Below the pieces are notes generated by a model, which did no database searches, had not been told where the DNA came from, and was given only the letters and a program-made list of their open reading frames with translations. A stretch of DNA of 64,000 nt from a virus (lineage: Duplodnaviria; Heunggongvirae; Uroviricota; Caudoviricetes), in the IMG/VR virus record IMGVR_UViG_2851938318_000001; one strand, given 5' to 3'. The first letter of the stretch is position 1; each line of letters starts with the position of its first letter. Below, one piece after another: positions 24,783 through 25,811 of this stretch. The translations under genes and the position numbers were made by a program.

Positions 24783-25193
24783 TTAAGGGTTAGTGAGAGC
24801 TTGAAATGCGGCCGCGTAGGCAGCGATATCGACCATAATTTTTGGATCTTTCGCGTACTGATGTGCGTTGTTAGGGAAGATTGCCAATAGGCTATACACA
24901 TCTTGGAAATGTGCATGTTGACTGTAAACGAGTGCACGGTCGCTTGTGCAATTGAATCTGCTGCGGCTGCTGGTTCGTTCTTGCTTCGTGAACAAGAGAT
25001 GAACGTGATAGACGCGGGAGGACACGATAGCACCAGGAGCCGTATACGGGCCATCTTTGCCGAATATGGCTGGGTACATGCCTTGTTTAAACGACTTGAA
25101 ATCGTTGAGTAACGTAATCTCTAAGTCAGGCTTTATATCGAAGGTCGGCTTTAAAAATTGGGCGTAACTATCACTGTTCCATGTGATCTTCAT
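24783..25193 (-). CDS. YafO-like type II toxin
   Basis: Blocks FGKDGPYTAPG, VYHVHLLF, ALVYSQHAHFQDVYSLLAIF align with E. coli YafO as recalled from memory. Confidence 0.5.
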   Translation of the reverse strand: MKITWNSDSYAQFLKPTFDIKPDLEITLLNDFKSFKQGMYPAIFGKDGPYTAPGAIVSSRVYHVHLLFTKQERTSSRSRFNCTSDRALVYSQHAHFQDVYSLLAIFPNNAHQYAKDPKIMVDIAAYAAAFQALTNP

Positions 25194-25202
25194 CGTTCAA
25201 CC

Positions 25203-25811
25203 TCAATGGAATGAGAAGTTGGCGAAGACGTCCTCATCAATGAGGCCAGTCTGCGATTCGATGACGTCTACGTCGTTAAAACACTGATTTAAAATCAATA
25301 GCAGATCAGAGATAGCTAAACGATACTCAGTTACAGAATCGCTCAAGCGTTTCAAATATGGATGAGGTTGCTCAGAGTCGCGAATCAACTTGTTAACGAA
25401 TCCCTCCAAACCACGAATGGTCAGGTCAACGTTCTTCAGTTCTTCGTAACGACTTTCACCGAAGTTGCTGCGAATCTTTTCCGCTTTCCATCCAGAGATG
25501 GCATGGGCTAAGCGAACGTGTTTCGCCGTCAATTCTGCGAGCTTGCTTTCAATCTTTGCCAGCTGTGCCGCATCGCGGTTTTCTTGAACAGGAATAGCCG
25601 CAGTGCTCACATAGGTTTGTGTTTTGAATCCTGTGAATTTCGCAGAGGGCTTCATCGTGCCACGGAAGCGTCGATATCCACGCGGTTCAATAAAATCACG
25701 CCCAGATTTAGCTGTAGGCTTTGCGTTTGAAAAGCGTGAAGCGTTAGAGGTCACAGTAGCAAGGGCATTGCTAATGACACTCATATCTTCTAGGCAATTT
25801 TCTAAACGCAT
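25203..25811 (-). CDS. Hypothetical protein (202 aa) upstream of the YafO-like toxin; possible atypical antitoxin
   Basis: 10-bp gap to the toxin start; no Phd/YefM/YafN similarity recognised. Confidence 0.4.
   Translation of the reverse strand: MRLENCLEDMSVISNALATVTSNASRFSNAKPTAKSGRDFIEPRGYRRFRGTMKPSAKFTGFKTQTYVSTAAIPVQENRDAAQLAKIESKLAELTAKHVRLAHAISGWKAEKIRSNFGESRYEELKNVDLTIRGLEGFVNKLIRDSEQPHPYLKRLSDSVTEYRLAISDLLLILNQCFNDVDVIESQTGLIDEDVFANFSFH

Follow-up and report, generated by a model that had tools for sequence, protein, structure and literature searches.

A YafO-family toxin gene and its 202-aa upstream neighbour

The DNA analysed here is a 64,000-nucleotide stretch of a Caudoviricetes virus (IMG/VR record IMGVR_UViG_2851938318_000001), hereafter called the window. 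The list of open reading frames (ORFs) and the sequence placed two co-directional genes on its minus strand, precisely where the initial annotation had reported ORFs of 136 and 202 aa. Gene T (24783..25193, minus strand, 136 aa; WP_072328047.1) encodes a toxin of the YafO family, and gene A (25203..25811, minus strand, 202 aa; WP_169017105.1), located upstream of T, encodes a candidate antitoxin of an undescribed family. The junction between them reads TGA-GGTTGAACG-ATG with a gap of 9 nt. The segment 25194..25205 (minus strand), consisting of the stop codon of A and the 9-nt spacer with the Shine-Dalgarno sequence of T, was regarded as a probable translational-coupling junction, the Shine-Dalgarno sequence TGAGG overlapping the stop codon of A. 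The two genes are adjacent and co-directional, with the antitoxin candidate first and a short junction, and are inherited as a unit, corresponding to the layout of a type II toxin-antitoxin (TA) system. Both were under purifying selection, with omega values of 0.13-0.18 for A and 0.08-0.16 for T; the low omega of A showed it to be a genuine gene rather than a spurious ORF.

The product of T scored 78.2 bits (cutoff 25; E = 5.4e-22) in the Pfam family PF13957 (YafO_toxin), aligning with 99 of the 101 profile positions (2-100), and matched phrog_1651 with E = 1e-40. BLASTP aligned it to YafO of Escherichia coli K-12 with 36% identity over 110 residues (E = 7e-14), confirming the YafO-like character that had been proposed initially, and in RefSeq it is named 'type II toxin-antitoxin system YafO family toxin'. 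The score against the NCBIfam equivalog of K-12 YafO (NF007377) was 58.5 bits, which was under the cutoff of 153, indicating that T is a member of the YafO family and not an orthologue of K-12 YafO. The predicted structure of T was a RelE-like alpha/beta fold, nearest to the HigB/RelE toxins. T retained the residues K36, Y50, H63, H65, T83, Y90, and H111 in common with K-12 YafO, including an H-x-H motif, and this conservation suggests that the activity is retained. The protein is basic, with an isoelectric point (pI) of 9.0. Its N-terminus carries the motif MK.TWNSDSY..FL.P.F, which is not present in K-12 YafO; residues 1-27 (window 25113-25193) contain the motif ..W/Y N S/P D/E S/T Y/W..FF/FL.P.F...P.L common to the toxins with long partners described below, and this motif may be a docking site for the long partner. 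The profile search of PDB sequences gave no match for the T family or the A family, and by this search no YafO-family structure has been solved. The sole match of T in PADLOC-DB v2 was insignificant (E = 0.015).

The statement in the initial annotation that the upstream protein shows no Phd/YefM/YafN-like features was borne out. A had no family match in Pfam (E ≤ 1), NCBIfam, or PADLOC, BLASTP produced no alignment with K-12 YafN even at E ≤ 100, and no PF02604/YafN relationship was found. The protein fell into phrog_13546 (E = 9e-125), a function-unknown family, and is annotated as 'hypothetical protein' in RefSeq, which was also the label of the partner in all the plasmid matches listed. The family is small, comprising 27 clusters at 90% identity, and the exhaustive HMMER search against 1.84 billion representatives recovered only 11 representatives belonging to the A family, and none of them led to a named family.

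The AlphaFold2 (AF2) model of A had a mean predicted local distance difference test (pLDDT) score of 61.5, with approximately 80 in a helical bundle. The model and the family alignments together outlined a helix at residues 3-26, a disordered linker at approximately 27-75, a three-helix bundle at 76-178, and a tail at 181-202. The N-terminal helix was conserved in the family alignment, while the linker of approximately 50 residues was basic (charge +7), variable, and predicted to be disordered. The C-terminal tail, ESQTGLIDEDVFANFSFH, was invariant and acidic (charge -5). This segment, with the pattern ES.T..ID...F.NF.FH, was also predicted to be disordered, yet it was the most persistently conserved part of the protein, kept in relatives with only 30-33% identity. 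A conserved but disordered tail opposite a basic toxin has the look of the toxin-binding segments of type II antitoxins, and the predicted disorder of the linker and tail is compatible with lability of A. A signal peptide or transmembrane segment was also considered for the A clade and rejected, as the Kyte-Doolittle maxima were 1.2-2.0 over 11 aa and never exceeded 1.1 over 19 aa; the polar helix of this clade is usually preceded by a net negative N-terminus.

Conservation of the pair and its control region

The loci fetched through A carried a T homologue directly downstream in 33 of 34 cases, and those fetched through T carried an A-family gene directly upstream in 35 of 36. The single exception among the latter (L067) was discarded as an informative case of T without A, because what remains of T there is a degraded piece next to a fragment of an integrase. 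The spacer was 9 nt long and started with GG in nine of ten representative loci covering 39-100% A identity, with 12 nt in Pluralibacter, and the gap was constant in all of the 26 full-length IMG/VR loci. When 72,556 plasmids were counted by identity band, the numbers were 12/32/1/270 for A and 12/32/1/267 for T, approximately three more plasmids having A than T. In the phage collection, A was present in four records, which were exactly those with a T-clade gene.

The identical A-T arrangement was found in at least five unrelated genomic contexts, including a slot of phage-plasmids described below. The chromosomal copies, each an isolated insert of the two genes, comprised one among metabolic genes in Erwinia sp. 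JUb26 and others in Brenneria/Samsonia/Pectobacterium, Enterobacter roggenkampii, and Pluralibacter gergoviae. The two proteins co-diverged, with A changing faster (identity of 39-93% for A and 52-92% for T), and a faster-evolving partner is the usual asymmetry between antitoxin and toxin. In one locus (L039), A was intact and T was replaced, and no intact T without A was found in the fetched loci. Decayed pairs were also seen. In Acerihabitans sp. TG2 (L011, 4001-4534), both genes were truncated, with A residues 104-202 and T residues 1-74 remaining. The pair on p_AC125 of Klebsiella variicola (L086, 2001-3019) was full of frameshifts, which may be assembly errors; this entry (H109), considered as a bridging A homologue, proved to be merely a frameshifted pair of the Klebsiella type.

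A candidate sigma-70 promoter is located upstream of A at 25845..25873 (minus strand), with the -35 element TTGTAG (25868-25873), a 17-nt spacer, and the -10 element TACACT (25845-25850). It was identified through conservation across contexts and not by a generic scan: the alignment showed TTGT(A/C)G-17-TA(C/A)ACT to be conserved in the chromosomal copies of Erwinia and Enterobacter despite unrelated flanks. The generic promoter scan of the region from the glutaredoxin gene to A gave no match of at least 9/12, the candidate itself scoring 8/12. The ribosome-binding site AAGAGGTTTT was conserved in the same chromosomal copies, and the Shine-Dalgarno sequence of A, AAGAGG (25816..25821, minus strand), took the form (A/G)AG(A)GGT in all six aligned contexts.

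Just past the stop codon of the glutaredoxin gene, the terminator scan and the alignment detected a G+C-rich hairpin, GGCTCCTTTTGGGGCC (25883..25898, minus strand), which was kept with the cassette in E. roggenkampii and Pluralibacter. We read this hairpin as a terminator-like element that would insulate the cassette from upstream transcription, with the cassette's own promoter lying behind it. An imperfect inverted repeat, CGTAC-N6-TTACG (25837..25852, minus strand), overlaps the -10 element as a weak candidate operator. The repeat was perfect (CGTAC-N6-GTACG) in the Klebsiella copies and absent in Enterobacter; with 5-nt arms close to chance, it is too weak for an operator call and is noted here as a lead. 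The DNA downstream of T was not conserved between contexts in the alignment.

The fixed spacing, the co-divergence, the joint movement with the promoter, and the A-only remnant indicated, at the level of sequence comparison, that A is an obligate, co-diverging upstream partner of T. The initial suggestion of a toxin with a non-canonical partner is upheld to the extent that T belongs to the YafO family and A is an obligate neighbour other than YafN, and these comparisons point to a role of A as the antidote.

Long partners of other YafO genes and the phage-plasmid slot

Distant YafO_toxin genes, 27-36% identical to T, were found to follow an unannotated gene for 167-190 aa located upstream at -10 to +16 nt. 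Such pairs occurred in HK639, PhiR40_1, Pseudomonas vB_PaeS-D14L, the Klebsiella phage-plasmid GArcari-2022b, and E. coli pLAO18, as well as on plasmids of Enterobacter hormaechei and Klebsiella pneumoniae (distant pairs at L074, 914-1932; L075, 222-1212; L076, 980-1932; L077, 1983-2917; and in L082-L084), and no YafN-like gene was present beside the distant phage and plasmid YafO genes sampled. Three of these distant partners belong to phrog_8416. The pairs of phrog_8416 and phrog_1651 (HK639 gp17/gp18, PhiR40_1, and vB_PaeS-D14L) resemble the present cassette in having the YafO_toxin gene after a partner of 167-190 aa with a gap of 8-16 nt, their toxins being 28-37% identical to T. Two further partners of the phrog_8416 type, from Yersinia and Kosakonia prophages, likewise precede a YafO_toxin gene by 8 nt and occupy moron positions.

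The hhalign comparison of the phrog_8416-type family profile with the bundle of A gave a probability of 81% (E = 1.2e-5, 102 columns). Pairwise BLASTP between A and the distant partners gave weak matches (E = 6e-4 to 0.01), and A had no direct match to phrog_8416. A and the phrog_8416-type partners have in common an (I/L)RGLEG helix and an A.ARS...LN..I helix, and the terminal FH recurs in several of these partners, while the tail and N-terminus of the phrog_8416-type partners differ from those of A. The phrog_8416-type clade is thus a probable remote homologue of A as judged from these profile and motif similarities. For the partner clade of pLAO18 and GArcari-2022b, BLASTP gave no significant link to A. 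The three partner clades parallel three toxin clades. Among the mobile YafO genes sampled, a long partner is the rule, and the pairing with YafN in K-12 is the different one. The description of the partner as atypical in the initial annotation held in comparison with K-12 YafN, but not among mobile YafO genes, where all those sampled had partners of 167-203 aa.

The yafNO locus of K-12, located in the dinB operon, is an experimentally proven TA locus (PMC2814082). Like T, its toxin is a member of PF13957, and the antitoxin-first, co-directional layout is common to both; in contrast, K-12 YafN is a Phd-type protein of 97 aa to which the 202-aa A has no similarity, and the present cassette, which is plasmid- and phage-borne, has no LexA/dinB context. 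A survey in 2011 recorded YafO with Phd or unclassified partners only, and on neither plasmids nor phages (PMC3141249), and the D14L toxin has been given as occurring alone (PMC10449497). The partner in PhiR40_1 is labelled 'YafM antitoxin' in the GenBank record; the literature search found no study behind this label, nor any paper that connects YafO to phage-plasmids, to SSU5 or pHCM2, or to NetFlax.

The window is an SSU5-type phage-plasmid. It was 98.9% identical to Escherichia phage CMS-2020a over 4.7 kb, and the 1.2-kb region 24700-25900 was 100% identical to pRM9131-1 of E. coli RM9131 (117 kb, IncFIB, bovine). The cassette is flanked by a glutaredoxin gene (GrxA; 25907-26152) and by the gene for a tyrosine recombinase (23506-24609). 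The whole 1.2 kb was covered in 45 of 439 plasmids, many E. coli relatives matching the flanks only. The cassette was present in 19 of 5,426 complete E. coli genomes, on plasmids only. It is common in phage-plasmids of Klebsiella, which accounted for 273 of the 316 A-carrying plasmids, and the sequenced plasmids with the cassette number at least 315.

The cassette lies in a variable cargo slot extending from a palindrome to the glutaredoxin gene (window 24741-25906; L001, 6142-7016; L039, 4607-6100; L082, 1938-2893). This slot was occupied by an unrelated 184-aa gene in phage Cyrano, by A and a 300-aa function-unknown ORF with the loss of T in L039, and by a different long-partner/YafO pair, with a toxin 28% identical, in E. 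coli pLAO18. No Pfam family was recognised in the alternative cargo, and PADLOC gave nothing significant, the L039 ORF having a weak match to a cyclase (E = 5.5e-4). The palindrome, AATGATTCCATAC-ATAGTAG-GTATGGAATCATT (24708-24740), is perfect, with 13-bp arms and a 7-bp spacer, and lies upstream of the tyrosine-recombinase gene at a distance of approximately 100 nt. The palindrome has no second copy in the window (chance expectation 0) and is conserved across 22 of the fetched loci, that of the cassette-less phage Cyrano among them, and the homology among phage-plasmids breaks at approximately 24741, at the edge of the palindrome. The sequence resembles a lox/dif-type core site; it may serve the recombinase as its target (dimer resolution) and may also delimit the cargo slot.

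Some other features of the window were also recorded. Six copies of an IS3-family insertion sequence (IS), each with ORFs of 108 and 296 aa and annotated as IS1203 in pRM9131-1, were present within the 64 kb, four on the plus strand (1156-2369, 2716-3929, 7675-8888, and 39634-40847) and two on the minus strand (17665-18878 and 51573-52786). The phage-plasmid is unusually IS-laden for the SSU5 type, with 117 kb compared to approximately 108 kb in relatives. Four tRNA genes, for Ser-TGA, Thr-TGT, Tyr-GTA, and Asn-GTT, lie at 27413-27970 (minus strand), and phage Cyrano has only those for Ser, Thr, and Asn at the equivalent place. A 302-aa ORF at 26326-27234 (plus strand), divergent from the glutaredoxin gene, is conserved in the Klebsiella phage pJN2-26 and annotated as hypothetical; neither a Pfam family nor a significant match in PADLOC was found for it.

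A as a candidate neutralising partner of T

We consider it probable, at roughly 70%, that A is the neutralising partner of T in a type II-like TA cassette. The best reading of the cassette as a whole is an autonomous and mobile unit, having its own conserved promoter and located in a variable slot of phage-plasmids, with a role in phage-plasmid maintenance and/or phage defence. An A-only remnant occurs, and no intact T without A was found; this asymmetry would be predicted if A were an antidote, but not if it were a co-factor. We infer the binding of A to T, its interface, the lability of A, the toxicity of T, and the biological role along the following lines.

The cassette would be transcribed from TTGTAG-17-TACACT, and the translation of T would be coupled to that of A via the Shine-Dalgarno sequence overlapping the stop codon of A, so that A would be made at least as abundantly as T. 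A would then bind and silence T. The likeliest contact would be the acidic and aromatic C-terminal tail, which may be disordered alone and fold onto the basic toxin, with the three-helix bundle serving as a scaffold or dimeriser. The basic, variable, and disordered linker would render A protease-labile, and A would decay upon the loss of the phage-plasmid or the shut-off of host expression. Free T, a predicted RNase of the RelE/HigB fold, would cleave mRNA and arrest growth; plasmid-free segregants would be removed, and the plasmid-prophage would be stabilised, as with Phd/Doc of P1.

Phd-Doc of the phage-plasmid P1 is a TA pair on a plasmid-prophage that kills cells losing the prophage, and its toxin is a Fic-fold kinase. 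The role of Phd-Doc is like that proposed here, and by analogy the present cassette may confer addiction, while the toxin and antitoxin of P1 are unrelated to T and A. Within the HigB/RelE superfamily (HigBA, RelBE, YoeB-YefM, and YafQ-DinJ), the toxins are alike to T in predicted fold, with sequence identities of 6-12%, and the antitoxins HigA (helix-turn-helix), RelB (ribbon-helix-helix), and YefM/Phd are unrelated to A. In epsilon/zeta and PezA/PezT, the toxin-binding part of the antitoxin is a three-helix bundle without a DNA-binding fold in that domain, and the toxin is a UDP-N-acetylglucosamine (UNAG) kinase. These systems may offer a precedent for a helical-bundle antitoxin by analogy only; their toxin is unrelated to T, and the 50 best Foldseek matches listed for A included neither system.

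Several observations weigh against the assignment of A as a type II antitoxin. A is not acidic overall (pI 8.5). Pfam, the AF2 model, and Foldseek revealed no recognisable DNA-binding domain in A, so that autoregulation, a usual feature of type II TA systems, is unsupported, and the operator search upstream of A gave no convincing inverted repeat. The Foldseek comparison of the A model with the PDB returned generic helical bundles only (best E = 0.3), and the confidence of the model itself is moderate. The sister partners in L075, L076, L077, L082, and L083 have a hydrophobic, signal-peptide-like N-terminal segment of approximately 30 aa, with Kyte-Doolittle maxima of 1.8-2.2 over 11 aa and an n-region of neutral to positive charge, an unusual feature for an antitoxin that is presumed to be located in the cytoplasm. 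In addition, Culviner et al. reported K-12 YafO without a codon-position or 5'-end bias (PMC8546651); as the mechanism of K-12 YafO is debated, the term 'ribosome-dependent' is not simply transferable to T.

Among the alternatives, the one that survives best, although we regard it as clearly less likely, is that the cassette serves mainly in abortive infection or anti-phage defence as cargo of a prophage; A would act as a sensor-antitoxin, its helical bundle detecting a product of the invading phage, or would be depleted by phage shut-off, freeing T. Related long-partner/YafO pairs do occur at moron or defence positions of temperate phages, between the antiterminator Q and holin genes and inside tail modules. 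Other cargo, its function unknown, can fill the variable slot of the phage-plasmids, the cassette is an accessory element as seen from its plasmid-borne presence in only 19 of the complete E. coli genomes, and A with 202 aa is far bigger than simple neutralisation needs. However, no PADLOC-DB v2 defence model was matched by A, T, or the sister partners, and the isolated chromosomal copies among metabolic genes (Erwinia and Pluralibacter) resemble selfish TA insertions more than defence islands. A wider form of this idea would unite the 167-203 aa partners of the A, phrog_8416, and pLAO18/GArcari types in one ancient superfamily, the default partner of mobile YafO toxins, acting as sensor-antitoxins that would let go of the RNase when their bundle or N-terminal hydrophobic helix perceives a signal from a phage or the membrane. 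Such an unrecognised abortive-infection system of temperate phages and phage-plasmids in Klebsiella, E. coli, and Pseudomonas is a speculative proposal that we think unlikely to hold as a whole.

It appears improbable that A is instead a required co-factor, a targeting or activating subunit of T, with T kept harmless through low expression or an unseen RNA. A does lack antitoxin hallmarks, being neither small nor acidic overall and having no DNA-binding fold, and strict co-occurrence and co-divergence would suit any obligate partnership equally. On the other hand, the partner gene comes first, the junction is of the coupling kind, and the partner evolves faster, as is classic for antitoxin-toxin pairs; L039 keeps A with T deleted, no intact T without A was found in the fetched loci, and the 9 nt between the genes and the unconserved DNA downstream of T leave no room for an extra gene or repeat array. 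The least credible alternative, a domesticated, non-toxic YafO-fold T acting with A in the phage life cycle, for example by modulating translation in lytic growth, would agree with the pair being embedded in phage genomes and with the score of T far under the K-12 equivalog cutoff (58.5 vs 153 bits), but is opposed by the retained H-x-H motif, H111, and other residues common with K-12 YafO, by the stand-alone chromosomal copies outside phages, which argue against a phage-specific function, and by the absence of the cassette from many close E. coli phage-plasmids.

With A taken as the neutralising partner of T, the toxin family and the TA logic are known, and the partner family is undescribed. 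Partner swapping among TA families is well known. Mobile YafO genes have been reported as orphan toxins or 'incomplete' TA systems (PMC8151138; PMC10449497), and it is because the partner family is unannotated that such toxins are usually reported as orphans. The conserved long partner would complete these 'orphan' modules and would provide one, perhaps three, new candidate antitoxin families without a Pfam model; the finding also points to a wider group of long YafO partners in phages and plasmids that has been overlooked. As no YafO-family structure has been solved and the mechanism is debated, a stable complex from this clade could aid work on both. The module occurs widely in phage-plasmids of clinical relevance, in which it is systematically given the wrong label of an orphan toxin. 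For phage-plasmids of the SSU5 type, it would provide a determinant of maintenance or defence that can be tested.

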